A stretch of 55,116 nt of DNA, counting the filler, from Bipalium vagum (lineage: Eukaryota): assembly GCA_037834085.1 (NCBI GenBank). It is 3 parts of 3 records of this genome, joined end to end, with 100 filler letters (N's around TTAATTAATTAA, not from the genome) between each part and the next. Parts side by side here need not be neighbours in the genome. Positions count along the whole stretch, not along the records: positions 20,325 to 36,634 come from JBBMKC010116700.1; 2 more parts are not named here. One strand, written 5' to 3'. Shown piece after piece: positions 394 to 55,116 of this stretch. The first letter of the stretch is position 1; every line of letters starts with the position of its first letter. The notes under the pieces were generated by a model that saw only the letters and a list, made by a program, of their open reading frames with translations, did not search any database and was not told where the DNA came from. Position numbers and translations under genes: made by a program.

Positions 394-3300
394 TTCATTT
401 GGTATGCTTTGGGATTCTGACGATAATACGTTTTGATTCTTGTTACTGATCGAGAGGGAAGAATCCAGAATATTCAGATCAGAATGAAGGGTTCCCAGCC
501 GATGATCATTGATGGAGAAGTAACCAGAGGATTTGGTAGTACTAACAGCCGTTCTTCCGAGTTCTATGAACTCACAGTTTTCATTCACCTATTTATTATG
601 GATTAAATTTCGTATTTTATGAAAAGAACGAACTTTGTCTATTGTATCCTTTTCTTCTGAAAGAGAGTCTTGTATTTCTTTTATTCGCTTTATAATTACC
701 TTAAGTTCTTGAAGACTTGTGTATTTCTAGAATAATCTTTAAATCAAAAATACTTAATATTGACCATATTTCTATTTCTGGTAATGTAATATTGGTAATT
801 TCACAGAATAAAAGATTCAGTTCATGAAGACTAGAAAGACAGTAGAAAGAAAGTTCGAGAAATTGGACGAATTCAAAATAAGGATATGATTTTGATATTA
901 ATATTTTTTTCCTGTAAGGTGTTCGATAGGTCACCTCACAATTTTAACCTTTTGTAAGTGTGAGATAAACAAAACTGAAAATCGATTTTTGCGTATTTAC
1001 ATTCCAAAAAACAAAGTTTACAATGTAACATATATATCGACAAAACGATGTTCATTTTGTCAATATATAGAATAAAACTAGAAATAGAGTTTTCCACAAC
1101 TCTGCCAGTAATCTATTCATTTATTTCATGGAAGTTGTCAGATAACGAAACCCAACATGGTGCTGGTTGCATGAATCATCATGACTGCATTTCACAAAGT
1201 CATGAAAATCCCTAGAAATCACATGAAATGCACCAAAATGCACTGTTTAGATGGTAATCTGCTTTAAAAATTTACTTTTAAGTTAACACTGTGAAAATAG
1301 AAGATTATTAACTAATACAGAACTTTAAAGAACAATGTTGAGGACTCATATTTTCAAAAAAATGACACACCTATTAATACATATGAGCATAACAATGCTT
1401 AAGTTTCTTATTAAAAATTTTCTCAAAGACGGATTAATCGTGAAGGTTGGACTAGTTGAACATAAAGGAACTCAGATCCTACCTATTGAACTTTTTCCTC
1501 TAGGAGCTTAGTAAGAGGAAGCATACAAAATGATGATTTTTTCATTTTTGTTTCAGTGATTCCGTGGAATGCGGAATGCAATAACTTTCTTTGAAAAAGA
1601 ACTTCCATTATGAAACTTTATGTTTGGAAAATAATGGCCTTCAGATAAAAATCTAAATTCTGTAACCAATCAAATTTTGAATAATACTTTTGCTTAATAC
1701 TTATACAATAACAATGAGTTTTAAACTGATCCAGACAATATCACTGTAAAAGTATCTTATAATAAACTTGTTAAAGATGTTCTTTGTCATACAAAATATA
1801 ATAAACTTAAAATTAGCTCAAAAAAGTAATCTAGGCCTCTCATTGAACAGTTCAATACCCTGACAACATTTGCTAAAAAGTTAACTACTGAGAAGACCCT
1901 GTTTATGTATTGCATTCTATAAGTTGAAAACAAGAATTAATCTTTCGTACAATTTTCTTAAGACATGTTTTATCCCTTTAAATTAGAGTGGTAAAATCTA
2001 GAAATTTTAGTTGATCATTTTCTGTTTTCCTTGTGTCTTGGATTTGGTCCTTTTTATAATTTCTTTTAATTAATTTTAGTGTCTTTCGGAGAACCGACTT
2101 CTAGATGACAGTCATTGAGCAAATTTACCATCAAAACTGAGGTTTCAAAAAAATGTTTCATTCTGCAACATTGACATACACACAGTGTGTCAATGAAGTA
2201 ATAAGACTGTTCACATACACGATAAAGTTTGGATCTTTAGCTATTGTGTAATAAAAATTTTATCAGTAACCAGAGGTATGCCTTTTTTAACATAATAACT
2301 TTTTTTCTCATGTCGAAAATTACAGATGGAACAAAGAACAGCTATAAAATTTAATGCCAAACTGTGAAAATTTTAAACATTCCAACTGATGCATCAAGCT
2401 TACGATGATCTATGTCGAAACAGGTCCAATGTTTTGTTATGGCATAAACGTTTTTTGAAAGGCAGAGATTCGATGGAAGATAATGAAAGTGCAGGAAGAC
2501 CCGAAACACCAGAAATGATTGAAAAAGTTTCACATGTTGTGACAAACAATCGATATGCGTCACTGCGTATGATGGAAGAGGCTTTAAAGGTCAATAAAGA
2601 AATAATCAGGGCAATTGTACACAAAGATTGAAAAACAGGAAAGTGTATGAGCTAAATTTGTACTACACTCATTAACAGACGAACAAAAATCCAGTAGAAT
2701 TGTACATTTTACAGACGTCATTTCAACTTATAGAAATGATGTAAATTTCCTGAAATCAACTGTAACTGGAGATGAAAATGGTCCTTTCAATATGACCCAA
2801 AAACCATAAGACGAAGTGCAGAATGGAAGACAAAGAGCTCACCATAATCAAAAAAATTGAGAAAAGTTCCATCAAAAACCAAAACAATGCTCAGCCCTTT
2901 TTTCGATTGTAAAGTTATTATCCACAAAGAATATGTTCCATCTGGACAAACTATCACAGGCGAATATTTTAAAAACATTTTGATGGCCAGAATTCATCGT
3001 ATTCTAAACAGTTGGTTTTGTTACACTATAATGCACCAAGCCATATTACTAATCATTGTTTCTCCGTTTTTAGCAAAAACAATCTCTGTGTTGCATCATC
3101 AACCGTATTCGCCTGATTTAGCGCTTTGCGATTTCTTCTTATTCCCGAAAATCAAAATGAAGTTAAAAGGATGTTATTTTGATGATGTTCCAATTATACA
3201 AACAGTATGGTCTCGCATTTTGGAAGAAACCCACAACATGAGCTAAAAGCGGCATCCCAGTTCTTATTGAATCGGCATAACCGGTGTATTGAAGACAGGG

Positions 3301-6300: not shown

Positions 6301-9300
6301 AAATATGCGAAATAAGTCAGGCTAATAAAGAAACACCTGAGGCATCGTTAAGAAATGCTGTTAAAGAAGACAAATGCAGTTTTAAAGCTGTATACAACGT
6401 AGTATGAAAAGATCTTCAACTTTATTCATGTTACATGACGAAGATTTGCTGAAAGAATTGTAATGTGAAAAATCTTTATTAATGAGATCGACAATAATCA
6501 ATCTTTTCATTGATGAAGTGACATTTTCTTTAAATGAATATGTCAACAAACAAAAGATATTCAATACCTGAAAGGCATTATTCAAATGGATACAGCCAGA
6601 ATATCCCTTGAAATGTGTCAAAATGTTTTGAATGACTTTTTTAATCGCTTACATAAATTTATTAAAGTTAAAGGTCATTTCGTAGAAATATTTATGACCT
6701 ATCAAAAATTTTCAGTCTTCAGTGGAGTATATTTTATGGTATTACATTTCAAAATCGAATACTTCCTTTAAACACACTCTGTATATTTATTTTCAATGTG
6801 ATTGTCTTGAAAATTTTATTTTTCCTTCCAATTTATAAATCATCATCGATATCAATGCTGACTCTAAGAAACAATATTGTTGGTAGCACTCATCAAAGAA
6901 AATGAATGTCAAAAAATGTTATATTTTTCTGAAATCATCGGAAAGTTTTTTAATTTAATAAAAAATAAAAAGAAAATATTATTTTTGTGAAATAATTTCT
7001 TCACACTATCCGGAAAAATAAACAGTACATCTTACCAGAGTTAGAGATCTGTTAACCAGACAGTTTTCAGAGTAATGGGGCATTAATTGAAACAGATAAG
7101 GTGTCATGATTGCAGGACAAACGAGTCGCAAAAAGAAGCAGGCCGAAATGACTTTCTGAGTAAATTCCAAATTGGTTATTCCAAATTGTTTTAGTTTACT
7201 GCGAAGTCGGCTGAATACAGTTTGGACACGGCTGAAACAAGAAAGCTGTGAAACGTTTCGAAAAAATGAATATAAATAAAGAATGATTGCATTTTCATTA
7301 GTATTAAAATAGTATTTTAGTATTTAACCAAAAGAAATTAATTAAAACAATATTTCAGGAATTTTTATTCGAGAAGAATTTCAACAACTTTATGAAAAAG
7401 GACAATATTGAGAAAATAATAAAGAAATAAGTGGTGTTTAAGATAAGTGGAGTAAACATATCAATAAAACTATTGTGATAACGGCTATAGGTTGAAAAGT
7501 ATTAAGTCGTTCAAAAAGTTTTGCACGCTTTTGTTTATATACTCCAAAATTGTAAATAATTCAAATAACTTATTTAAACATTATTAATATATTATGTAGC
7601 ATTCACAAGCTTGTATATTTTTCTCTTTACAGTATTAATATGTTGTGCTTTTAAATTAAAATTTGAGTATCCTTTTCCCATTTTAATGTAGGATCTCGTG
7701 TCGTGATTTGCACAAAGTTTATTTTTGAGTCTCAACAAGGTACAAAAGTAGTTGAAACTGCTAGAAAAATTAATGAACTTTGTGGCCATGGTCAGTCAAC
7801 AGGACGACGTTGGTACCAGAAGTTCCGTAATGGACATTTATCCCTGAAGATGTGAAATGCATTGGCCGTCCTTCCAAACTTGATGAAGAGGATACGTGAA
7901 CAACAATAAGAAAATTTGCCAAAGGTCCAGATGTCCGTAATGGAACCGTTTCCAGTCATATGAGCAAAATAGGTAAGAAAAAGAAGCTGGACACGTGAGT
8001 GCCACATGAGCTAATCATAAAAAACAAAGGGAAGCGCTATACGATATGCTTGGAACTCATTTTGAGAATTAAAAACGAGTCATTTCTTCATCGTGTGATT
8101 ACCTGTAATGAAAAATGGTTGCTATATAAAAATATTAAACATTCATTATATTGGTTAGACATTTGTGAATGTCCCAAGTCCTTCCCAAAACCAAGTCAAT
8201 AGTTGTTCTGGCACAAATTATTGGGTTAACCAAAGGCACCGAACGAGTATAGTAAAAGTAAATGGAATACAAAGGGTTCAATCATTAGCAATAATTAATA
8301 ATAATGTTATTAAACGGTTATTATATAAGACAAAATCAATAATATTTGTTTATATTTATTTGTTGTCCTATTTAGAAATTTTCATGAACTTTAAAATTTT
8401 ATTTCTGCACGATTCAAAGTGTTTTATCCACACAACACACCATAACAATGATGTTAAAACATAGAAAATAAAATAAGCATTATTTAGTAATAATATATAT
8501 TGAATAGTCTATAAAACTAACTATGGAACAGTATCGACACTGGTGAATATTTTCGTTAAAACGCTACCAACAACGTTTTCAAGTTTTTTGATTCTCTTCT
8601 TGATAGCCGACGCCGATATTGGTTCATTTCGTTTCATCAATTGAAAATGATCAATCTCCAGATCTTTCTGGTGGATCACTATGTCACTGATGGTATTCTG
8701 GAGAATACTTTGCAAATACTAATTTTAAAAGAAAAAGGAATGACCATTAAAGCTAAACATTTCAGGTAAATTACCATTTGACATTCCAATTTTAAGAAGC
8801 ATTCAACGGACTTAGATGCCATAGTGTTCCCTCGCAGAATAAGGTTTATGTCTGGATAAAATTAAACTTAAAAAATTCATTTATCCATTCACTTTAAAAA
8901 AATAAATAAATAAACATATGGCATGAAAAGTTTTACGGGCAACATTCTTAGAACAATATATGATTCTAAATGTCCCCAAGATGTATTATTTCACTATTTC
9001 ATGAGAACACGCTCCAAATTTAGTATGTCATTCAGAATTGAACCCTTTGAAATTGATATCTTGATTTAATTAAAAGAAAAGACAATTATGTCTCATAGTT
9101 GAAATTACAATCCAGAAATTTTTAAGCCTTACAAATAATTTTGACGGTATAAATCGTAGAAAAGGATGATTTACAGAAGAAAATTGTTTTCTTTTATGAC
9201 AATTTCATTGGTTTGACACGGGATAATCTTGAATTTCTGTAACTTCTATCTCTTAGAAACCCTTAAACAATTCTTCTCTGGATAGAATTTGTCTTTCAAT

Positions 9301-20324: not shown

Positions 20325-21478
20325 GAATGGAACCAGATAAAACTTTGGCATCAAAAGTAGTTGAAGGAAGGAAAAAAGATAAGACTAGAATTACAATTGG
20401 TCTGTGCTGTAATGCTACAGGAACTGAAAAGATGGAACCACTTATTATTGGTAAATATTCTAGTCCCAGATGCTTTAAAAATATAAATCTGGTAAATATT
20501 GGAATAATTTATAAGTGTAATAGCAATGCGTGGATGACGCGACTGATATTTCAAGAATGGCTATTTTACTTGAACAATTATATCAAATTGAAAGATTCCA
20601 CACGCAAAGTTCTACTCTTGATTGACAATGTAACAAGCCATTATCATATGGACTATACATTGAGCAATATAAAGATTCAATATTTAATTCCCAATACAAC
20701 CTCGAAGCTCCAGCCTCTGGATGCAGTCATTATTGCTGCTTTAAAGTAATGTATAGATACTTTTTTAATAAAGAACTGGTGAGAAAAATTGATGAAAACG
20801 ATAATATTAATGGACGAGGAAAAATCGATTTAATTACAGCTGTTAGATTTATTACAAAATCATGGGAAAAAATCAGTTCTGAAACAATTAAGAATTGTTG
20901 GAATCACACAAAAATTATAAAAATTGAAAATATCAACAAATGTGTTCAAATACCTTGTGAATATGAAAATGATTCGATGATCTCGTCTTTAAAAATTGAT
21001 AGCCCGATGTCTTTTGTAAAGTATATGATGGTTGACAATGATGATTTCAACGAGAAAATTTTGGATGAAACAAATGATAATACAGTAAGCAATAATGATG
21101 ATACTGAGGATTCAATAAAAGAATCAAGAACATCATCAAAAACGGCCTTTGAATGTTGCAATCTGTTGGTCCAATATTTTGAACAACATCCTGTACATTG
21201 TACACAAATGATTAGATCATTAAGAACCAACAAATCTTTCATTTAAAATAAGAAACAAAAAGGTTTGAGGCAAATGTCCATAATGGATTTTATTATTTAA
21301 TTAATTTGTGTCATATATTTTGTTTATTTGTATATTCTATATTTTGTATTTTTCTATATTGTTTTTGAGTAATAAGTTACGTAATTTTGACTTTTCCATT
21401 TTACACCCTATAAATTCACGTTCCACAAATAGTTAAATTTCGCGGGACGGAAAATGTGAAATTATACAGTGTTGACTG
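20325..21478 (+). mobile_element. Tigger/pogo DNA transposon, 3' part (DDE_1 transposase with one frameshift)
   Basis: Motifs GRKKDKTRITIGLCCNATGTEK, IGKYSSPRCFK, NSNAWMT, LLLIDN..SH, PNTTSKLQPLD and ISSETIKNCW. Right TIR gtgaaattatacagtgttgactg followed by TA at 21479-21480. The 5' part is lost at the gap. Confidence 0.95.
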
Positions 21479-24266
21479 TATTCTTACTTTTACAATGTAA
21501 ATAAGCTTTGAAAATCTGGCTTTTATTTGAAATTAAACTTTGAATCGTATTAGTGCAGGCTTAGTTATGACTATTAGTCTTTTAATTTACTTTTGTGGAG
21601 GTTTGAATTGTCTCCATCTGTAGGTTTACTGTCTAGTCTGAACTTGTCTGATCTAGGTTGTATATTTTTTTTGTTTCTGTCTTTCTTGTAATTTTTGTTT
21701 CCTTTTATACTATCCTTTTTACCCTCTTTTCTGTAATTAGTAACTCTCATTTCATTAATATAATTCTGCTATCCTTTTTTTATTTTTATCATTTTCTTAT
21801 AAAAATTCTTACCTAATTTCTATTATTAGTAAGTTAATGTTACATTAATATAAATTTTCTTTAAAATATAAATAAATAAATATAATCATAATTAATACTA
21901 ATGTTAATGATGTTATTTCGCAAAATATTATTACATTATACATTATATTATTTATAATGGTATTTCTTTTTCTTCTAATTCCTTATTTATTATCACTTAA
22001 TTATTGTTTTGTTATTTATTATTTTATACAAATCAGTCAAAGCGATTTTACAATATATATTTTAAACTTGGAATTATATTATACACAACACCAAATACTG
22101 ATCAAAATTAAAAAGATAATGTCAAAGATCATATAAGAAAGGAGAATATCAGTGTTAAGGATCAGTTTTTGTATTGCTCCGGATCGATCATTTGAATTGG
22201 CACTGGTTGCTCTTGATTTGGTTGTAGTCTCCATACATTCATAAATAGAACATAATTATTTACTCTATCACTATGATTTATTGCTGTATGTATATAAGCA
22301 ATTACAGAATAAACAAAACATTAATTATCATTATTTTTTATAAATTATGATTTGAATTGTAATTTTATATATGATGATCCAACTAAACATTGATATTTAA
22401 ATAAATTTAATCTAATTGATATTATTTTATCTAATTTCCAATTTTCGTTCTATAAACTTATTTAATTTTTCTAAAGTTGATAAGTGTATTTATTTTTTCT
22501 GGTTGTGAAAAAATTGATTTATTAATATTTCATTTGTTTCTAAAGAAATTTTGAACGGCAAATTGTGTGGATATTCAATATTTGGTATTTAATATTGATT
22601 TAATTGGAAAATTTCAAACCCAAATTGGTGGTCACAATTGGCAATTTTCCCACTACTCAATGAAAATGAATAGACGAAAAATCACAGTACCTTTAATATT
22701 GAGTAGATTAATATATTAACTTTCTTTGTAAATCTAGAGATACTTATTTCTTGAAAGGCTATTATGGAAATGAAGCTTAGATGTCAATCAATGTCTGCAT
22801 TCATTTGGATGCGCTATATACCCATATATCTTACAATCCTTAGTGATTAATCAAATCTTGTAAGTAGAGATAAGCTGATTACATCATACAACAGTAATTA
22901 TTTATAGAAGTGAATTTAAATTACTTTTTAAATTAAGCATTGCAGTAAAAATATTATCACGAATATCTTTGGTTAAATTTTAGTTTTATTTTTATTCATA
23001 AAAATATGTATATATTATATGCATCCCTTGTCTAAAAAATAACCATTTTGTCAAGCATTTTCAATCATTCTATAAAATTAATGACGAAATACTTAAATAT
23101 ATTGTTGAGAATACGAATTATAAATAAGAGAAATGAAATCTATATAAAAATAAAATCATTAAAATGAGATGACATTGAATTTTTCATTTTAATAATATCA
23201 ATAAATCTATATTTAGGACTTAAATAGTACTATTTAATGAAGATTACGTTAATAAATCAGTGATAAATAATTAGCACTCTAAATAAATACACTCAACACT
23301 GGTTTTCTATGAATTTTCTTTCATCCAGAAAATATTGCAAAGGAAATCAACCAGTTTAAGAAAAGGAAGAAATCATCATGACCTACGCTAGAAAACTACT
23401 GGAACATTAAAATTCACTTTTCTACTAGACACTTCAGATAAGTTCAAGTTCATAAAAGAGTAAATCAATCAAAAAATAATTACACTGCTCAAATCATCAT
23501 TTAAAAATTCGTTAGCGTACAAATATTTTTAATAATTTTAACGTAAGCACTTTTCAAAGAACTTAAATATGATAAACCCTGTGATTGAAGAAATTCCACT
23601 CAAACTTATATTGAATAAAATTAAGGTTAATATCATATTTTATTTAATAAATGTAAACATCAAAAATCGATTCCAATCGTCTACATAGATAGTCACATAC
23701 AAAAATACAACAATATGAAAAATTATAATCTCCAACTAGAATATACTACACATTTTTTGCCTATCTAAACTGTTTTTCATAAAGAATAGTTGCAATATAA
23801 CTAATTTAAGAATTATAAATCTATAAATATATATATATATATATCGAATTTGTACTGTCACAATAAATTGTGCTTCATTGGTTTTTCATCCGTTAAAGTA
23901 CCCAACAAGAATATTTGAAAAAAGAAAATCACAAAAACTAACAACATTAATTAAAAATGGACGCCAAAGGAAAACAAATAATAATATAAAACTAAACCCT
24001 CTCATCATTATCATCATTTTTATGTTGCGAATAAAACCCGATAGATATATATTAACGATTAATAATAATATCAAGAGAATTAATAAAAAGAGTTATCGAT
24101 TTTTTTTAAAATCACGAAATATTTATTGTCAACATTTACTGCAATCATCTACAATTAAATAAGATCCACGTAGCATACAAGATAACATCTATATCGACCA
24201 ATAAACGACAATAAAAAAGTGAATTGACATCGTTACCTCCGAGAGATGAAAATTGGAATAATAAAT

Positions 24267-27200
24267 TTAATCCATTTGAACTGTACCCCTGACGACATTG
24301 TCCCGCAATTGCTGAAATTTTTAATGATTTTTTATTCAGTAATTAATAAACTGAAAACGTTGTACTAACACAAATAAAAAGTAAAAATATTTATAACAAT
24401 ATTACTTCTAATAACATGTCTATAATTTGGTGACAATCTTGAAATTGATTTTTTTATCATGTAGGAATAATTTATAATTTTTATAATTATTTTATAGCAC
24501 TAATTAGCTTACCTGATTTTTTATAATCGATTGAAAACAGTATTTGTCATTTAGCGATAATTTATTTTTTATAATTAAAATTATGAAAATATTTTAATTG
24601 AGTATGTAATTAAATTATATTAGTAACATTTTACTTTTGAAACAATTATTCCTTGAGAAGTGATAATAATTCATTAATTTATCGATAATACTTATTATCA
24701 ATGTTTTTAAAATAAGATTAATATCTGTTTTAATGTTTTCATTTATTGATAATTTAAAATATTCAATTAATAATTTTTATTTCATAATTTAATTTATCAA
24801 TATATTCTTAACTAAATTATAAGCGGTATCCTTATTAAAATATAAACATTAATTTATGCTAACTTTATATATTTATAAAATATTAATCTTATTTTAAAGA
24901 CATTGATATAAGTATTATCGATAAATTATATTCATTGATTTATAATTAAAAATTTCAATCATTGATAGTTAATTAATTTTTCATTTATTTATTAATAATA
25001 AAACATTAAAAATTTAATATTTCTTATTGATTAATAGTTATTAATTTTAGTTACATTTGAAATATTAATAAGTCGATGATTTATAATTTAAATCAGTTAG
25101 TGATTTTTGTTTTAATTGATAAGCTGAAATTTGAAATGTTACTGTAACAATAGTTGAATTATTATTATTATGAAAAAAAAACCATTACAATGAATAAAAA
25201 TGTCACTCTACTCAGTTATTGTGTTTTTCAATTAATTTCATGTTTCATAAATCAATATCGAAAAAAAAGGATTTATATTAAAAATGAACGTTTAAAAAAT
25301 TGACCAATTAAATATTACTTCATCTAGTTCCTTCTTCGCTCTGTCTTCGATAGCTCGGATATCTTCCATTGTCAACCCAAACCATTTATCCATCCAACAA
25401 AATACCATTCGATGAAAGTTTGTGAAAATTCGTTTCTCTTGCTAAAACACCATGATCATTAAAATCTATCTTTATTTTTTAAAAAAGCAATATATACTTT
25501 CATAATAGTTTTCTCGATTTGACTCTGTAATCCAAACCATTTGAAGTCACAATAAACCAATTTGTAAGCACACATTATAGGAGAAGTATGATCCTGAAAA
25601 GAAATTTTTTTCAATAATAAACTTTTTGAGAAAACAAATTAGTTGGATCAATAATAAAAATGTATAACTAAATATTTTTCTCTCTTCATTCCAATTATTT
25701 TTAACTTTTGTCAAACAAAATTACATTCGCTATTTAGGTCTAACATTGATTTTCAATAATTTTACGATTGAGGATTATTTCCCACGCTTTTAGAAAAATT
25801 GCTATTAATTTTTGAAAAAAAAACGTCACAGTTTTGTTTTGGAAATCTAATCAATTGGAACAAATAAATTAACGTGACAGCCTCAACAGAAGTGTGTAAT
25901 TTGTAATTCTACCCAATAAATCTGGACCAAATTTATAACGACCAGATAATTACTTCTACAACCAATTCAACGATATAATAACAGGCCTGCTAAAAATAGT
26001 CCGTTGTTGATAAGGAGATCAAGCCAACAAAAACTTAAGTGCAAAACGAAATAAATTTATTTATCTGAATTTTGTCATCAATTTCATTATTTCAATTTTT
26101 TTATATTTATCGATTAATTATTTATTAAATGATAATTTGTGTAACACTGTGAAGTTCTGATTTTCTTTCAGTCAATAATTGTTGAAAGAAATACACAATT
26201 TATAAAAGATCTCATTATCGTTCATGAATTAGTTTAAAAACAAAATGTAAAATCAATAATTTTTAAAAAACTATTTTTTAAAAAACAGAAATCTATAAAT
26301 GTTCAATATAAAATTAACAATGACAAGAGATTTTAAAAGCTTGATTACTGAAGTTTATGAAGATTGATGATCGATAATAAATTCCAAAACTGATTTGACA
26401 GCTACATTTCTCATAACAAATGTCTTTCAAGTGATCTAAATCCATCAATAAATGTAAACAAAATCTACCACAATAAAAAATTATTACTTTTAGTGATCAA
26501 AAAGGATTTCTATTTGCTATTTTAGAACAGTTATTATTAATTTTTTGTTACTATAAACTCATAATATGACCTTTATTGATAATGTAATTAGATTAATAAA
26601 TAATTGTCAGCAATTTCTAATCCTTTTTGTTTTAATGTTTCTAAGAATAGTAATTATTGATAACCATTTCTGTCACTCTCTTTCAAACAAGTACGCCCAC
26701 AATCAATCGTTGATGTCGATGATTAGATGTACAACACGAGAGCATGGAATTAATAGTATACCAATAACTGCCTGCAGCTTTAACCAGTTTCAATATTTTT
26801 AGTGTTTTAAGATTATTCCTTTGAATTTTGATCGATTTTCTCATTACCAAAATTCATAAAATACACTTATTTACATCATTAAATCAACACTTCAATAGCA
26901 AAACTATCAATATAATCCCGCAACCGAATTTCACAATGAACATTACACGAGCAATATATCGAAAGTGTGAATTTTAAGTGTAAATCAATATTTTAAGCTA
27001 AACCAGATTAAGTTCACTTAATAAATCAATAAGATTTATTAAAAAGAGAATATTCAGCACATCTCAAGTACTCATAATTCTTCACCTTGTGTTACAGCTT
27101 TTCAAAATTAATAGTTGATAAGTGAAACGTGTCATATGATTCGAATCGATTGTGCCTTTCATCAATGATTATTTTTCGTTTCAAAAAAATTTCTCAAAAC

Positions 27201-28708
27201 ATAAAATTTTTAATCAATGATTCAAATTAATTATTTTCAATTTAAATAATCGTCAGAAAATCAATCAAAACTCTATGTTGAGTGATATTTGAACGAGAAC
27301 GTTTATGTCACAGCACAACACAATGAGAAACATTGAAAATTTTATTTTTCAATGTGCTTCTTTTTGATTATCATTGAATAATTAAACAATAATTCCGGTG
27401 ATGCAACCCAACACACATTTGAATGTTAAAAATTGATTTTTACATTTTATAAGTGATTTTTTTAAAGAGAAAACAATAAATTACTTTCCACCACGGTTTA
27501 TTAATCAAAGGTCCTCGGTCGGTTTTTTGAGATCTGAACAGTTTTGGATCCTGATCCGCTTTGTAATCGGCATATGCATAGAGATCATCATTGGCAATGT
27601 CAATGATTATGACTTCCCTTTTGGCCAGGACGTCAGCGGGTAACTGATGGGCCTGAAATTTTTCAGAAGGAAAACACATTATACAATTTCGTTTTGTAAA
27701 AAATGACTAAACATTGATTTTTTTCAGAATCCATCGTCATGGTTACATCATTTCGTGAGTCACAGGTTAGTTTAATCGAATAAGAAACGAAGAACGATTT
27801 TTATAGGAGCACGTGATAGAATAAAGTTGAAATAAGAATACGTTAATAGATAATATTTTACTAATAATGATGACCTCAAAGTACAAAATTCAATTATCAA
27901 ACATAATTTATATTAATTTCAAGAATTCTCCTCAAAATCCCAAAGAATTTATTCAATTATTTAGAGTTATATTTGATAATACTGTTTAGAATAAAGAGCA
28001 GAAAAAATATGGTTCGAGCAATGATCTTTTACAAACAAATAATATCAATAAAAATATTTTCATTCAAAGACTTTCATTTGGTTTTGAAAGTTTTAAAATA
28101 AGCTCAAAATATTTCTCTTATAACTAGATTAATATTAAAAGTAATCAATAATTTATCTATTTTATGAAAAAATTTTCGACTTTTTAAAAAAATAATTGCT
28201 TACATTTTCAGAAGTTCCATCATCTCCTATATGCATACTTTCTATCTTAATGAAAAATTTATCTTTCATATAACCTGGGTTCTAAATATGTGATAAGCTC
28301 AAATACATATTAAATAATGTCACATACTGTTAATACAGTGCGACAATATGGATATGCGTTCCAAGCTTTTTCTTCCAATTGCAAAGCTTCTTTTGGAGCA
28401 AGATAGCGCACTATTCTAGGCACCTTGTTAATTAAATGATAAATTTTATATGTATATTGGCCAGTTTGGAATCTGGGATCACCATTTAACAGTTCGGGTT
28501 GAGGTACATGCTTCGCTTCAGTGAATGGTTCATTATTGAGTACTTCTATACCTTCACCACCACCGGTTTCATTTTTAGAAGCCTCTGCTACTGACCACAA
28601 CTGAGCTACTTGATATTCTTCAACGGTCATAGGAAGAATAACACGACTTTATTATTGATTAAAATTTAATGTTAATTTAGTAAAAACTCACAATTCCTTT
28701 ATCAGCAT
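24267..28708 (-). CDS. PITPNA: Class I phosphatidylinositol transfer protein (PITP alpha/beta, vibrator-like), 281 aa, 7 exons
   Basis: Exons 28708-28692, 28646-28328, 28281-28204, 27652-27485, 25593-25498, 25441-25319, 24311-24267, all GT-AG and in phase. Translation: [41 protein letters not shown]...[10 protein letters not shown]...[14 protein letters not shown]...RGPL...MCAYKLV...FKWFGLQ...[24 protein letters not shown]...VVRGTVQMD*. The symbol denotes the family; alpha versus beta cannot be resolved. Confidence 0.96.
24675..24928. repeat. Inverted repeat (about 50-bp arms, 155-bp spacer) in last PITP intron
   Basis: 24675-24724 is the reverse complement of 24880-24928 with one mismatch and one indel. 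Confidence 0.85.
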
Positions 28709-28980
28709 TTTGATTAAACTATTTTGGTTAAAATTTTGTAAATAAATTTAAACCTAAGTTCCTTTCACGTTTTAATTTATAAGTGATTTAAACTGAAATA
28801 GTAAAACAAACGTGTACACAAAAATTAATAAAAATATAATTACTATACTAATATATTAAAATTTTAATTTAGATGTTAAGATAATTTTATTTAATTTAAT
28901 TTTTAATTTAAAATATTAATAAATTTATTATTTTATTTTAAAATATTATTTTATAGTGAAATAAAAAAATACATACACAA

Positions 28981-29508
28981 ATGTTTAACTTTTGTGAGTA
29001 ACTTACTGTGTGCTGAGTATTTAAGTGATGATTTCACACAACATTTAATAATCAGCAAAAAAAATTTATATTAACAAAATATACATTCCAAAAGTATTTA
29101 TTGATATATATAAATATATAATCAATTCATCGATGACAGTAAGTTCATTTATAATTTTTAAGATATAAACATATTACCGGTAAAGATTGAAATTGGAGTA
29201 GACTCGAATCGTTATTTGGATAATGGAGATTGTTTGGAAATTTGTGGAATTATTGGTGAAAAAAGGTAATTTTTTAATATATAATTAAAAATAATCAAAT
29301 TAAAATTCATTTCAGTTTCGAAGTCATTTTATTATCAGATAATAAATCAAAATTTAAATTTTCAATAAATCAGAACTATGGTTGGGATGTTTACACCTGG
29401 GGTAAATCTACTTGTGATATTGATTCCGGATCAAATTGTTCATTTTTGGAGTACTATTCAAATAATCTATTTACTCTATGTTTACAAATCAATTGCAATC
29501 AAATTTTG
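28981..29508 (+). CDS. Putative spliced gene, divergent galectin-fold-like protein; last exon unresolved
   Basis: Exons 28981-28993 (ATG TTT AAC TTT T|gtgagt), 29163-29265 (ttttaag|...AG|gtaatt) and 29316-29508 (tttcag|...TTG|gtaaat) are phase-consistent, with one 50-bp intron. Product: MFNFYINILPVKIEIGVDSNRYLDNGDCLEICGIIGEKSFEVILLSDNKSKFKFSINQNYGWDVYTWGKSTCDIDSGSNCSFLEYYSNNLFTLCLQINCNQIL. The fold call is by-eye pattern recognition only. Confidence 0.55.
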
Positions 29509-30270
29509 GTAAATCATTACTTGGTTATTTTAATTAGTATATTTTTAATTTGACAAATTGGAATGCTTGTAGGCTTTTAATTCTAACTTGTCATTGATAT
29601 CGTTGAATATTTACCAAAACAAATTTTTATTGATCATTTTATTCAAATATAAAAAAATGACAAGCCTTTATAAAGAAAAATGCGTGGTTATAAAAATATT
29701 TATATTTTAAGATAAATTAATGTAAGAATATATCATAATGATATATAATAGCAGTTATTAGTTGCGAATAAATAAAAAGTATGTTGTTACCTTATATAAA
29801 ACTCAATATAATTATTTTCCAATTTATTGAAATAATGAATCTTGCATTTGATTAATGTATAAATATATTGACATCTTTTAGTACTCAATAATATTTATTC
29901 TGACTGGACATGTTATCTTTTTAATTTATATTATTTATTTAATATAGAAAAATGAATATTGTCTATGTACTTACCATATATAATATATATTTACATTTCT
30001 TTTCTCGTAAATTAGGCTGCTGTAACAAAAAACGAAGTTCATATATGAAAGAAATAAACATTTTCATTATTTGTTGGCAAAACAAATCGGTTTTATTAAT
30101 AGATAGATGAAAATTTAATAGGCTTATCTTTATTTAAATTTTTTATGAACTTAAGACCAATATTCTTCTAAACACGATATCACATTGGGTGATAACTTGA
30201 ATATAAGTTGTTCTAATAGGTAAATTTCAAATACTTGAAGAAAAATCTCTCTCCTTTCAGTTTATTAACT

Positions 30271-30390
30271 ATCAGGTGTACAAATTAATTCCCGCATTTT
30301 TTACGCGTTTTCAATTTAGTGAAACTGAATAAATTTATTAAGGATGTTTATTACAAATAATTTCCATCGTTTTTATGAACATTTCCTCAA
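30271..30390 (-). mobile_element. Mariner 3' terminus fragment
   Basis: TIR-like atcaggtgtacaaattaattcccgc next to a minus-strand NVHKNDGNYL* transposase tail. Confidence 0.55.
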
Positions 30391-30539
30391 AAATTTATTG
30401 TGGAATTCATTACGTTTCTTAATTTATTAAATAAATAAATAAATAATATTTTCAATAGCAGATTTACTAATTTTCATTTAAATTATTAAATATTATTTTG
30501 AAAATCTCCCAATTGGGTAATTTCTAAATACAATATATA

Positions 30540-31771
30540 CGTGGTGTGTCCAATATGGTAAAAAACAAGAAACGATCACAAAACAATTTTGTATTAATAA
30601 CAATGAATTTCCAGGTAATTATTTTTCAACAAAGTTCCCAGAAACGTAAACAAAATTTTTCCTACGAGTCATAAGTTGCGAGAAGGCATTTTTGAAGAAA
30701 TCAGGAGATTTGTCGTTCAGATAATGAGTGAAAGTCTTCTGCAAATCGTCTTTTGATGAAATTTTTACCTCTTAGTTCCTGCTTGAGGTGTTTGAACAAA
30801 AAGAAATCTGAAGGAGCCAAGCCTGGACCGTGGGAAGGATGCGGGAGCAAAATCAAGCTATAATTCTTAATTTCTGTTGTGGAAAATGTAAATATGTGCG
30901 TTGTCATGCAGATAATATAATTCAGAGACTCGGTTCTTCCTTTTCAGTGTCCTAGCTTGTTGCACTGTTGAGACGAACAAGTGATTCAACAAAAACGGTG
31001 AGAATCACGCAATTATGATCCAAAAAAATGAAGAGCATTAAGTTTTTTATGTGATGATATGTTCATCTTTCTTGAAATGGTCTCTCCTGGAAGTTTCCAT
31101 TCTTTTGATTCCCTTCTAGACTCCGGAATATAGAGAAATAAAGGTGTCTCATCCATCGTGATAATGTTATCCAGCATATGGTTCCCAACCCGTTGTAAAG
31201 TTTCCAGATTCTGTTGGCAGCACTCCAAACGGTGAGCTTGCATATCAGCAGTTAGAAAACGTGTCACGAATCGTGAGCACAACTTTCTGATGCCACTACT
31301 TGCCAGTAATGACTGAATAGTAATTTGCTAACATTTAGACGCACAGTGAGCTATCTTGTGATTTTTCTTTCATTTTGTATAATTTAATGTAGGTTTTCTG
31401 TTATTTTTTTCGCTGATTTCGCATGGCCTTCCTGATTTTTCTATGTTTACCACGGAAGTTCTTTCAGCTTTTAATTCATTGGACCATCGTTTTGTTGTAG
31501 TCCATGAAGGACTACCGTAAACTTCATCTAATTCCTTTTGAATTTCTTCTCGAGTTTTTTCTTTAAATAGAGGAAACGAATGAAGCTCCGATATTGAAAA
31601 TTTATTAAAGACATTTAAAAAATATGCGATTTATATGAAAACATAAAATAATATATTAAGACAAATATCTTACATTTACCTATAAAATATATTGCACTTT
31701 ATATAATTATAATATATTTTAATTTACATTAACCTTCCTACATTAGGCTCACTACTTATTGGCACACCATG
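30540..31771 (-). mobile_element. Full-length degenerate mariner element
   Basis: TA-flanked TIRs cgtggtgtgtccaata and tattggcacaccatg. Motifs QYRSFIRF, EKSGRP, CSRFVTRFLT, IITMDET and LLPHPSHGPGLAPSDFFLFKHLK. Confidence 0.93.
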
Positions 31772-32199
31772 TAAATAGTCATGACATGAGTTCTGTATCA
31801 TTCTGTAGCTCTAATATTCTTTTAGAGAAAAATAAAATACATTTATTTTAAAGTTCACAATGGTTAAATTTAGAAAATCATTGTTTTCCGGAATCAGTCT
31901 TAAATGAAATATAGAATGAGGAATCAAAGATATTGACTTTACAAAAATGCAGAAACTCATAAAACGAATTAATTATTATTAATTAATCAAACTTTAAATT
32001 ATTTAAGAATTTTAAGATTAAACTTCTTTTAGTCCTATTAATGGGTTTTTTCTACATTCATTTCAAATGTGTAACCTAAAATAAATATGACATATTTCAA
32101 CAAAATTAAAAATATATCCTACTATATATGTTGTTTATTAAAATCTATAATGCGATAATGAAAAATTATTTTTATTACCTTAAAATATGAAGAAAATGT

Positions 32200-32400
32200 A
32201 TACTTTCAAATAAAGCAATTACTTTCCGAATAACCTAAAAGTTAAAACAGTTGTTGAATTAGAGATGGATATAATTAGTGTTGCCAATGAGATCTTCGGT
32301 CTCGATGTTTAAGAGTCTATCTCAACGCAAGAGGTTATTATTTTGAATAAAAATATATTGAGATTTACGACCGTTCATAGTTACTAGGATTTCAATAAAA
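32200..32400 (+). mobile_element. Short mariner 3' tail remnant
   Basis: NARGYYFE* tail followed by aaatata, as at mariner 3' ends. Confidence 0.3.
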
Positions 32401-32886
32401 TTAATTTTTCCAATTTTACGTGCAATGTTATGATAAAGATAAACAAAAATATAAATAATTTTTGAAATAAAATCTGAAAATTAAAATTTATTGTTAAAAT
32501 AAATTAGACGAAAAAACGGATATACATTAAAAGTTAAACAATTTAAATTATTATTGTAAGAGTTAATACGTATGTATAAAAATTTATAATGTTCATAATT
32601 TAAATGAAACTAAAAAAAATTTATAAAAGATACATATAATTAGCTAATCAGTTTCCCAAAGTCGAAAATCGATTATAATTATTGTGAATCGTTTTATAAT
32701 ACTTGTCAATGATCTACTTGATTTTATATTCTGGAAATCAATTTTAATCCCTTGCATTATGAAATTTGAAAAGATGAAGGGAATTTTCTAAATTTTTGAA
32801 TTAGTTATGATTTTTGACAATGTATATTTAGGATATTTATCGATACTAATAAGTTTATATTTAATCTAAAGCTAACAGTAAATCGG

Positions 32887-34060
32887 TTGATAAATGAAAG
32901 TCCTAGTTTTGAAATGAGCGTTAATTTTTATCAAGATAGAGCCAACCGATTAATTGAATATTTCCAAGGATATAATAGAAATCGTAAATTGACAATTGAC
33001 CAATTTTTTACCGAAAATGTGCTAAGAAGATCAATGCAAGGCATTGCGGTTAAAGCGATTTATAGATGAAGATCATATAGAATTTATAAAGAAATCTGGT
33101 CGTCCAAAAACAATAAATACCAAAGGAAATTAAGAGAGGGTGAGATCCTCATTCATAAAAAATTCGTCAAGAATTGGTTCGCAACGCTAATGAAAATTTG
33201 GATATTCATTATAGTAATGTTCACAAAATAAAACAGACACTCGGTATGAAAACATATACTAAAAAGAAGAAACAAAAGTATATCAAGAATTAAGAGCACG
33301 AAAATGGAGCAAGTACATTTACAATAAGTAGTACCATCTGGTGGAAATTTTATTTGTTTCATTGATGATGAGACTTAAGTACCAGCAGATCCAAACCAAG
33401 TACCTGGTAAAGAATTTTACTCAGAAATACCTGGAGTTCAACTGGATTCATCAAAAAAGGTTATTAAAAAAGAAAAATATTATAAAAAGTTTTAGCATGA
33501 TAAGCAATTTCTTCCTCGGGAAAAATAAGCTTGCCTTACATTCAGGAAGGTGCAATCAAAAGCGATATTTAATTAAAAGAATGTATTAGAAAAAGATTAG
33601 TTCCCTTTATGAAATCTGTTAATGTCGAAAATGTCTTCTTTTGACCAGATTTGGTCCTTATACATTATACAAAAGATGTATTGGGGGATTTAGAGAAAAA
33701 TAACATGAAATATGTATCGAAACAAAAAATCCTCCTAACTTACCTCAAGCACGTCTTATCGAACATTTTAGAGTTTGACTAAAAGAGAATTTAAATAAAG
33801 TGTAAAAAAACAATATAATCTTAAAAATTTCAAAACCATTTGGCCTAGAATATCCAAGAATGTGGCTCAAAATCATGGAAAATCACTATTTAACAATTGG
33901 ACAAAGAAACTAAGTCAGATTTATAAAGGTATTTATCATATGTAGTTTATGTATCAGTTTGTACATCTCTTCTTTTTTCATATAAAATAAAAATATTTGA
34001 AATATTATGGTTTAAAATTATTGTTGTACGAAGTTCGCGCTACTACTTTTGAAACACACT
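32887..34060 (+). mobile_element. Degenerate ITmD37E-like (DD37E) transposon
   Basis: Motifs KSGRPK, IDDET*VPADPNQVPGKEFY (33361-33420) and F*PDL..HY.K...NPPNLPQARLIE. There are 37 residues between D and E after restoring one base. Confidence 0.85.
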
Positions 34061-35199
34061 ATATCTTTAAGTTTTTCAGACTTGATAAAATCTCTAAAAA
34101 ATTATAATAATTAAATTTATTACATTATGTGCAACATAAACAAATCAATGTTGAATTTGAAAGTAACGGATGATTCTGTTTAAAGACAAACCAGTTCTAA
34201 CAAGATAGATTACATTTCTCTAGATTCTGAATCCAGTATTCATTTATATCATGATTAAATTTCTAAGCTTGTTTTTCTATAGAAATATTATTTATTTTTT
34301 ATATTTTTAAAGAAAATAGAAACTTATTGAAATTTCATGAGACTTCTTTTTAATTATTTACAACAATATTTGATTGAATAAATTAATTTATGCTAATTAC
34401 TTTATCAATTGTAATGGAGTTGACTATGTTTATATAAATAAAAATAACTATATTAAAAGTTTTAAATAAAAATTATATATAAATTTTTATTTTCCAATGA
34501 ATTCATTGATTAGAGGTAACATGACAACATCAGATTTTGTCTAACTCAATTTTCTATCAACTTTCAACCAAAATAAATTCAAATAAATAAATAAATGATT
34601 ATTTAAAAACTAAAACTTTTTAATTCTAAATTTGAAGTCTAGAAAATAAATTTTTATTTTACTAAATATAAAAATATTTCCTAATGTTTCTTTAAATTTT
34701 AGTTTTAATAAAGGTTATTATCGAAATTTATTGTTTTAATAACTTATTTTTAAATATTACTAATATTAAAATATCATAAATAAAAAAATATACATAGAAA
34801 GTAATTTGATTTTAAAATATTTACTTTAAATATAGTGGAATTTTATTGATTTCTACTTCATATATTTCACAGTGTTTATGGTTAGATGAAAATAAAAAAA
34901 AATCATTAGTATTGAGGATGGCTTATTTAATATTATTATATTACCTCTAAACCATGAAAAGAAGATTTGTTATTTTACAATAAATAATAAAAAAAGTTAT
35001 TTTTCAAATATCAACCTGACATTCCATTTTATGAGCTGAAAATGATAGCAAAAATTAAATAAATATTAAATTCAAATATACTATCTATTAAAACAAAATA
35101 TCAATATACCTATTAACAAAAAGTATTAGTGAAAGCCTTTAATTTATGAATATAATTTTAACTTTAAAAAATTCTCATGAATTATTCCTCAACTCAACA

Positions 35200-36000
35200 G
35201 ATCCGCAATAATATAACATTAATAGAAGTTATTCATGTTTAATATTTACATCCACATCTCTGGAATCAATAATCTGGTTAATGGTACAAGATTTCGTCCT
35301 GAAAATAGAAGTAAGTTCTTCTTTGATAGACCGAAATTCGACCCACAATTCATTCAGGTTATTGCAAATAGATTTTGGTATCGTTTACTTAAAGAATGAA
35401 AAAAAATCCAATATCACTTACGTTTAATTCTGAAGGTTGAACCGATTGATTTGTAACAATTACTGTTGGAATTGTACTGTCCCCAAAGTCATATAACTTT
35501 TGAGCATTGTTTTACCAACATGTTGACGAGCATTATCCATTTGAATGAAAACGTTTTTGAACCAGTTTATCCTATTTGAAACTGCAGTCATAATTTCATC
35601 ACACATCAGTTCGTAAAAATCAGTTCATTTCAACTTTTTAGCTTCTTGATCATCTGATAGAAGTGGACATGTTCTTCGAGATACGAGTCTGAATTTTTCA
35701 TCTTTAATAATTCTTTTGATACTAGTTTTTAAAATGACAATCTACTATGAAATGTCACAGATGCTACTGGAGCAACGTTTATAAATGACATTTTTACTCC
35801 TACGATCATACTCCGTACTTTTCATAACAAAGTCTTCCAAAGTCTTGTTTTCTAGCAAATGAACCACTTTTCAAAAATTTGTCTCGAAAATTTTTTTACA
35901 TAGTTTTTAAATACATTAAATGTCTTGCATAAATTTTAGACCGTTCAGTATTTCGGTTTCCATCCTTAACAGTAATCTATTATAATTGAATATTAAAAGC
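35200..36000 (-). mobile_element. Degenerate DD39D/DD40D-like (plant-mariner-type) transposon, internally deleted
   Basis: Motifs RTCPLLSDDQEAKKL, VFIQMDNARQHVGK and NQSVQPSELNVSDIGFF; compare IFIQQDNA..H and QPPNSPD.N.LDLGFF. Confidence 0.72.
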
Positions 36001-36544
36001 ATTTTATCTTTTACAGATAGAGTTGAAATTTAAAGTCTTCTTAAAGTCTAATAAAATATCTATTTAAAACAACATCTAAATCATTTGATGAAAATTAATA
36101 TAATTAAAAAATCCACTTTTGATGGTTTTGAAGTAGTATATAAATATTATAGTCAGTATAATTAAACAAATAAAATGAAGACTTCATATATGTACTTTAT
36201 AATAAATTCATAACGCAGAAATTATATTTTAAATACATTTAACAATTGTGAAAATATTTATTATGTATTTAATGAGTTTTTGTTTTAAATATTTGTTTTT
36301 TATATTTTCTATTAGTGAACAATTAAATTGATTTTAAATGAAAGGTGCCAATTTGTTTTTATACTGTACGTATTTCATAGATATTTAACATTTATTTAGA
36401 TAACGAATCAAATAAATAAATAAAAATATATATATATAAAGCAGAAAATTACATATTTGCTTATTAAAAGAATAAATCTGTAAATATTTCAATATTATTA
36501 AAATTGTGAAAATTGAATTGACATTTGAATATTCTAAGTTTTAA

Positions 36545-36584
<40 letters not shown>

Positions 36585-36591
36585 GTTATTC

Positions 36592-36634
<43 letters not shown>
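36545..36634. repeat. (TTA)n microsatellite at contig end
   Basis: Near-perfect run before the second spacer. Confidence 0.97.
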
Positions 36635-53449: not shown

Positions 53450-55116
53450 GTAATTTTCAGTTAATTGTTCGGGATCGAGATTAATTTTTGGAATTTGAGC
53501 TAACATTTAATTTAATGTATAATTAAAGAAACTTATTTCATTTTGCTCAGAAATTCTTTTCTCTGTCTGAGTTAAATTTGCAATTAAAAACGAAGCCATT
53601 TAAAAAAAACGGAATATTACAGTGATAAACGATCTCATTTTTTATATTTCCTTTTCTTGCTGGAGTCAATTTGTGAGCTTTATACTTTTCTTGCGTTTAC
53701 ATCTCGGGAAATAAATAACTCTTGCACATACTTCTAAGATGGACATTTTCTCGGTTTGACAACAGTAACTTAAGCACCACGTCCCACGATTGATATTCAC
53801 TTTATTTTTTAAAATAAATAATTTTAAAAAAATCACTCTATAAATAAAAAATGCGATTTTTTTAATGTTTACAAAGTAATAAATGGATAAAAGTATTAGA
53901 AAACGGTAAAAAAATGTGGAGTGGTCATAAAATCCTTTATTTATACAAAAAAGTTTTTCAAAAATCTGTTGACCTCAAACCTAAATTATAAATCATAAAA
54001 TACATTAGACAAGTAATTGAATTCGCAAAACATTTTATAATTTTTTCCTCCTTTGAAAAAAAAGTCTTTTATTATATATATTTTCTTCGAAATTGATTTT
54101 AAGTAATTCTTTAAATCTATTCACTTGAAAAATTAAAAAATCTCAGAATTCTTTGAATGATGATGAGCTTCTGCTTAACTGGGTAAAATGTTTTGTTTCA
54201 ATTTGAAGTATAAATAAATAATTTTACGTCTTAACAAAAACTATGTAAACTATAAGTAAAACTATGTTCTTAACTTCTGAAAATTAGTTTTAAAATTATA
54301 TTCGAATTAAAATATACTCTTAACATTAAAAGTAACATTAAAAATTAAATTAATGAAATTGTTAAAATATGATAATTAATTAATTAATTGTTTTATTTTT
54401 ATTTCTAGTTTAGCACAACCATAAATGAAAAACATAATAATTTTTTAAAATTTTGTTTATAATTAAATTTTATTTTTCAAATTCCATTATAAAAAATGAC
54501 ATTTATTGATTTAATGAAAATTAGAACACAACCTTTTGATATTTCATTTTAATTAATTTACTTAATTAATTTAAATTAACACGATTTAAAAATATGTTAT
54601 TATTTAATTAAATTATAAATGAAGTGAAATTTTTATTAAATTTGCATTTCACAATGATTCTCACTTCCACAAACGAAAATAAAATTAATTGATTTTCACT
54701 ATTTCAATATTTGAAAGTCTCTTAAAAATAGGAAATTTTTTAAATTATGAAATTGATGTTACGCTATTAAAGATATTTTACATGATTTATGTTAAAAAAA
54801 ATTACTTTATTGCGGTCAAAACGGTTTCCGTTTATTTAAAGGATTTTAAATATTAATAATTTGTTTAAATACACTCGAATTTAATGTGACAAAAATAATT
54901 TCTGAATTCAAAAAGATTTTTATTATTTTTTTTATATTTAAAACCTATTAACTGATATTTGTGGTAAGGTCTCCCTTTTGCAAGTCAACAAGTCAACTAA
55001 CAAATGTTAATCATGAAATTGTAAGTGTTTGGTTCGACCCGAGATCTAATCTCGAAAATATAAAAATGCTAACACTATTAATATAGGTTAGAACTGGGCT
55101 CACCAACTACGTCAAA

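Follow-up and report, generated by a model that had tools for sequence, protein, structure and literature searches.

A candidate four-exon gene head-to-head with PITP in Bipalium vagum and its possible galectin ancestry

The sugar-binding site of galectins carries the signature H-x-N-x-R, N, W and E-x-x-R. GRIFIN and GRP are described as being without carbohydrate binding (PMC3396283), and galectin-related proteins with an altered binding motif are likewise reported not to bind carbohydrate (PMC10343441). LGALSL2 did not bind any array glycan significantly, and protein contacts were proposed for it (PMC13696195). On the gene level, the domain of galectins and galectin-related proteins is divided among three exons, of which the middle one covers S3-F4 or S3-F3. 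A middle exon running from strand S3 to strand F4 occurs in scallop galectins and is thought to be ancestral (PMC10343441). Among flatworms, Smp_140590 of Schistosoma mansoni is a hypothetical protein noted as 'similar to Galectin family' (PMC5818524), and it was found in exosome-like vesicles (PMC5818524, PMC11349301). PMC3155867 raises the question of whether planarian galectins read the Gal-Fuc glycans of these animals. Literature searches on galectins in planarians, Schmidtea, triclads, platyhelminths, trematodes and cestodes gave no planarian protein of the kind described below among the matches listed, and supplements may list planarian galectin-like transcripts. The portions available of PMC4413821, PMC4795655 and PMC10744797 contain nothing on a planarian galectin-like protein.

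The window analysed in this study is the whole stretch of 55,116 nucleotides from Bipalium vagum, composed of three joined stretches. The candidate locus sits in the second one (20325-36634, GC 25%), corresponding to assembly contig C116700. An initial annotation had proposed here a spliced gene for a Cys-rich, galectin-like beta protein lacking the sugar-binding signature. On the opposite strand lies a PITP gene (Pfam IP_trans, E 5.9e-40), of which six exons join into an open frame across introns of 45, 46, 551, 1891 and 56 nt. Its exon 2 carries an insert of about 13 residues relative to mammalian PITP-alpha/beta. The two genes are arranged head-to-head with their start codons 272 bp apart, and the GC content of the 300 bp upstream of the candidate is 14%. 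Judging from its position, the gap between the genes likely serves both of them as a shared promoter.

25322..28708, minus strand: PITP gene next to the candidate, traced over its first six exons, with its start codon at 28708
28709..28980, no strand: AT-rich gap between the divergent start codons, 272 bp

The coding part of the candidate has one match in the assembly and is single-copy. Its own-genome search gave no second copy; locus L002, drawn from that search, is an unrelated frame of 471 codons. The read depth of the candidate in run X1 is 17-23, the level of unique DNA, and that of a repeat nearby (piece at 30.5-31.0 kb) is more than 2000. The contigs of run X1 continue through the proposed introns and show no joint there; the run therefore behaves as DNA and is silent on expression.

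Other features were observed in the window. A RasGAP-domain gene (PF00616, E 4.4e-6) occupies 7009-7323 on the minus strand with nearby exons to about 11022. A coding-like frame at 53281-53481 on the plus strand had no Pfam match at E 0.1 and resembles an exon of a Cys-loop ligand-gated ion channel. Decayed pieces of DNA transposons are found at 20327-21246, 2377-3246, 30270-31700, 32800-33900 and 41235-41940, and the first two of these gave matches to DDE_1 and Transposase_1.

The best model of the candidate is composed of four exons encoding 148 aa, with an uncertain 5' end and an uncertain exon 4.

28981..28993, plus strand: exon 1 with the ATG, 13 nt, preferred but uncertain
28994..29162, plus strand: intron 1, 169 nt, GT-AG, phase 1, from its splice words
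29133..29185, plus strand: alternative 5' end with ATG at 29133, two codons and a 47-nt intron (29139-29185), from the top-scoring gene-finder model
29163..29265, plus strand: exon 2, 103 nt, from its GC content of 30% and its coding score
29266..29315, plus strand: intron 2, 50 nt, phase 2, directly 5' of a Phe codon, donor 8.3 and acceptor 6.4
29316..29508, plus strand: exon 3, 193 nt, the candidate S3-F4 core exon without sugar-binding residues, from its open frame and anchored profile score
29509..29572, plus strand: probable intron 3, 64 nt, phase 0, donor 5.4 and acceptor 3.8
29573..29710, plus strand: probable exon 4, 45 codons plus stop, open-frame chance 0.011
29767..29772, plus strand: AATAAA, a possible poly(A) signal 57 nt past the stop, common by chance in such DNA

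The three exons of the initial annotation, with the ATG at 28981, exon 2 at 29163-29265 and an exon-3 frame open to 29553, were recovered together with their phases and splice words. The splice sites of intron 1 (donor 5.2, acceptor 4.2) are within the range of 29 training introns. Exon 1 is nevertheless not secure, since the gene finder prefers the ATG at 29133 and picks that at 28981 only when models of at least 140 aa are considered. The alternative 5' end removes the Pro-containing first strand. Exon 2 has a GC content of 30% compared with 10-22% in the introns around it, and it would encode galectin strands S1 and F2. Exon 3 provides 64 open codons, for which the chance is 0.004.

For the 3' end, either read-through or a splice to 29573 had been suggested, and both frames are indeed open. 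The read-through frame reaches a stop at 29551-29553 and yields 117 aa with six Cys, as counted initially, and the donor at 29509 joined to 29573 yields 148 aa with seven Cys. Read-through was judged less likely because the tail (29509-29553) has a GC content of 14% and a negative coding score, and the tail is more likely intron. The top gene-finder model nonetheless uses this tail; intron 3 appears in the models of 120-130 aa, and the 140-aa model takes a donor at 29524. Exon 4 is the weakest part of the gene model, with a coding score of -8.9 and a first-position GC of 13%. A better last exon was sought among 116 downstream acceptors to the contig end, and only transposon-like DNA at 33.3-33.4 kb appeared. 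The hydropathy maximum of the 148-aa model is 0.83 within the N-terminal 19 residues and 1.53 over the whole chain. By hydropathy only, the product is predicted to be soluble and to have no signal peptide, in agreement with the initial annotation.

The comparison with galectins was carried out using a profile of 37 domains from 22 galectins, mostly molluscan. In local alignment the spliced core scored 4.1 bits, a value reached by 6/2000 shuffles, and two probable chance matches elsewhere in the genome outscored it with 8.0 and 6.0 bits. The best local match lay in the register of the F3-F4 hairpin, not in that of the initial annotation. The unanchored whole-domain alignment was weak (20/300 and 22/500 shuffles as high). 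HHalign against galectins returned 1.7-2.5% locally and no match globally, where 132/200 shuffles were as high. No significant match to the PF00337 domain was obtained with Pfam on single exons, our own profile or HHalign.

With exon 3 fixed to profile columns 40-112, z was 3.1-3.3 and 6/1000 and 0/1000 shuffles were as high, for a galectin family and register chosen after sight of the sequence and with shuffles that leave strand alternation uncontrolled. The anchored exon 3 also beat 607/607 kinase 64-mers and 868/869 stop-free 64-mers. The other exons behaved differently. Exons 1-2 added little (112 and 156 of 1000 shuffles as high), exon 2 alone was not significant with z about 1, and exon 4 did not match (-3.6). 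With free ends, exon 3 alone moved to columns 100-143 or 59-121, and 55/400 shuffles were as high. For the 103-aa core with all ends free, two gap settings were compared and one of them placed it on columns 40 and 112; 1/400 exon-3 shuffles landed on both of these columns. On the primary structure alone, the galectin call fails. To the galectin skeleton described initially, the fit of the borders and phases of exon 3 to an S3-F4 exon adds a new argument, but the sequence match reaches significance only if that register is imposed.

The exon borders give a separate and suggestive line for the galectin link. In two galectin gene pieces, L003 and L043, a phase-2 intron lies directly 5' of the strand S3 Phe. 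The galectin exon of L043 covers profile columns 40-112, runs from phase 2 to phase 0 and ends in strand F4. Exon 3 of the candidate starts in phase 2 at Phe and ends in phase 0, 13 residues past an F3-like Phe, as in L043. Both borders and both phases thus match if the S3 register is right, a register that shifts with the gap settings.

The absence of the sugar-binding signature was borne out. In the S3-S4 register, the positions of His, Asn/Asp and Arg, as taken from the alignment, hold Lys, Ser and Asn in the candidate, and the Glu and Arg of the binding site were absent when exon 3 was compared with the galectin alignment. The Trp-Gly pair of the initial annotation comes about 10 residues too early for the conserved galectin Trp and corresponds to it only if a strand of about 10 residues has been deleted. 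Because neither a significant profile match nor the signature was found, the candidate cannot strictly be called a galectin.

The explanation we favour, tentatively and somewhat short of an even chance, is a likely living four-exon planarian gene with a possibly galectin-derived product of about 148 residues, which would form a beta-sandwich and would not bind beta-galactosides. The gene may be transcribed from the promoter shared with PITP. It would descend from a one-domain galectin gene and keep the ancestral exon plan, namely a tiny ATG exon, an S1-F2 exon, an S3-F4 exon and a last exon. Its product would be a cytosolic, soluble beta-sandwich that has lost galactoside binding. By analogy with the proposal for LGALSL2, it might act via protein-protein contacts, and its cysteines would be free thiols. 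Given a real gene, galectin descent has about even odds.

A somewhat unlikely alternative is that the gene is real and restricted to a planarian lineage, and encodes a small Cys-containing beta protein that has no relation to galectins. Its resemblance to them would then be due to hydrophobic alternation in the strands and a chance coincidence of two intron phases. The evidence for the gene is independent of the galectin link, and every unanchored galectin test was weak or negative. The residues encoded by AT-rich codons are preferentially Phe, Ile, Leu, Asn and Lys, which mimic beta-strand patterns. An unrelated protein would require, however, that both borders and phases of exon 3 match by chance, together with an anchored score above that of 868/869 natural 64-mers.

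Searches for homologs used single exons of 33-78 aa, and their reach is limited accordingly. Pfam scanned with exons 2, 3 and 4 singly gave no family at E 10. A PDB sequence search gave seven matches at E 10, none of them a galectin. Among 1.84 billion representative proteins, exon 3 matched a single bacterial repeat protein, which was judged spurious. No candidate was found by a word-index search with exon 3 among proteins of 50-160 aa, and no homolog in metagenome contigs. The ESM Atlas gave no galectin match and none above noise; its RCC1 matches at 0.80 were at the noise level and built on one short motif. Two AlphaFold models of exon 3 alone, predicted without an alignment, had pLDDT values of 55.7 and 37.7 and were uninformative on the eleven-stranded beta-sandwich fold of galectins and galectin-related proteins.

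The lack of homologs among the representatives, the 50-160 aa proteins and the metagenome contigs would also suit an unlikely reading of the locus as a gene already dead or in decay, perhaps a pseudogene derived from a galectin, in which exons 2-3 keep their signals, a proper first or last exon is missing and no protein is made. The ambiguous 5' end, an exon 4 that is not coding-like and the failure to find a better last exon point the same way. Against a pseudogene, the 148 spliced codons at 20-30% GC contain no stop or frameshift, and the splice sites are canonical at all three introns.

The coding potential was scored using a codon model, trained on those 19/30 kinase frames from this genome that have a GC3 below 0.40, and splice matrices from 29 introns, composed of 24/34 kinase intron calls and five PITP introns. 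Many kinase domains of this genome (G000) are found in long frames uninterrupted by introns; of the top 30, 27 have no internal stop, and some of the loci are near-identical pairs. The training introns are 40-85 nt long in 21/29 cases, and the 50- and 64-nt introns of the candidate fit this range. Exon 2 scored +12.7 bits, the best of its six frames, and 11/632 stop-free frames, itself included, were as high. Exon 3 scored -3.0, also the best of six and unremarkable, with 55/88 frames as high. As controls, two PITP exons scored +22 and +25 and a RasGAP exon -5.2; the codon model therefore misses some true exons.

The crude gene finder, trained on this genome, recovered intron 2 exactly and unprompted in every model. 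Its best gene-model score was 2.7, and the local shuffles reached a maximum of -16.4 (0/150 as high). Of the 96 tile-strands of the window, 10 scored as high, counting that of the candidate, and among the remaining ones several coincide in part with PITP exons or remnants of transposases. It is improbable that there is no gene at all and that one is imitated by chance open frames with splice-like words, in a patch of slightly higher GC, or by the remains of a transposon. The unremarkable coding score of exon 3 and transposase remnants that score equally high in the gene finder speak for this reading, but shuffles keeping the local GC did not come near the gene-model score, the phase-consistent frame is the best-scoring one for exon 2 as well as for exon 3, and the locus is single-copy at unique-DNA depth next to a repeat of far higher depth. 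Taken together, the spliced gene of the initial annotation is very probably real, living or recently dead, and probably it is a living gene.

Galectins elsewhere in the assembly were sought with PF00337 and a snail galectin. One clear galectin exon was obtained (L003; G000 C87592:7-165, minus strand), on a contig of 260 bp with a GC content of 40%, and it is possibly foreign, perhaps prey DNA. The search went exon by exon with a loose first look and thus cannot demonstrate an absence of galectins from the planarian. Two further matches, L004 and L005, look like chance, and L004 has internal stops. At about 1500-1620 of L004 (G000 C249063:13628-13744, plus strand), a gapless 39-residue match to galectin F3-S2 with 8 bits and two in-frame stops suggested either chance or a decayed galectin-like piece.

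At least three distinct COX1 sequences are intact in the assembly (L006 C253947, L007 C246471 and L008 C253320, all G000), which contains broken copies too. The top COX1 match has AAA at 5/5 places where Asn is expected, as in the flatworm mitochondrial code. Two of the sequences are flatworm-like and the third is like another invertebrate, presumably a mollusc. On the COX1 evidence, a planarian is the most likely source of the genome, alongside some admixed foreign DNA; the assembly is a mixture, perhaps of predator and prey.

If the galectin link is true, the candidate would provide an example, from a free-living flatworm, of a galectin that abandoned sugar binding, and intron positions could place an orphan gene missed by profiles. 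Even so, no new mechanism would be involved, because non-lectin galectin-related proteins are already known. If the link fails, the candidate is one more unannotated small gene. A bolder and doubtful proposal is that this planarian lineage lost its ordinary galectins and kept one descendant past profile detection, a Cys-rich non-lectin scaffold that is expressed together with PITP and betrays its origin only through the ancestral S3-F4 exon.

GRIFIN, GRP/LGALSL (HSPC159) and LGALSL2 resemble the candidate in having one small domain, no signal peptide and an altered binding motif. They differ in that they are vertebrate proteins which sequence searches clearly detect and whose exon is of the short S3-F3 type, whereas Pfam does not detect the candidate and its exon would belong to the S3-F4 type. 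Smp_140590 is a flatworm protein labelled as galectin-like; annotation recognises a galectin domain in it, but not in the candidate. Compared with the one-domain mollusc galectins (Mya arenaria P0007, Sinonovacula P0006 and the gene piece L043), the candidate is 23% identical along exon 3 when three rows are aligned, and pairwise comparison gave no significant match. It lacks the Asp/Asn, Arg and Glu of the binding site, its exon is eight codons shorter and it has 6-7 Cys. On the other hand, the one-domain bivalve galectins have 146 aa and the candidate 148, and Asn-Tyr-Gly follows the S4-like strand in both. If the S3 register is right, the core exons also agree in opening in phase 2 ahead of the S3 Phe and closing in phase 0 within F4.
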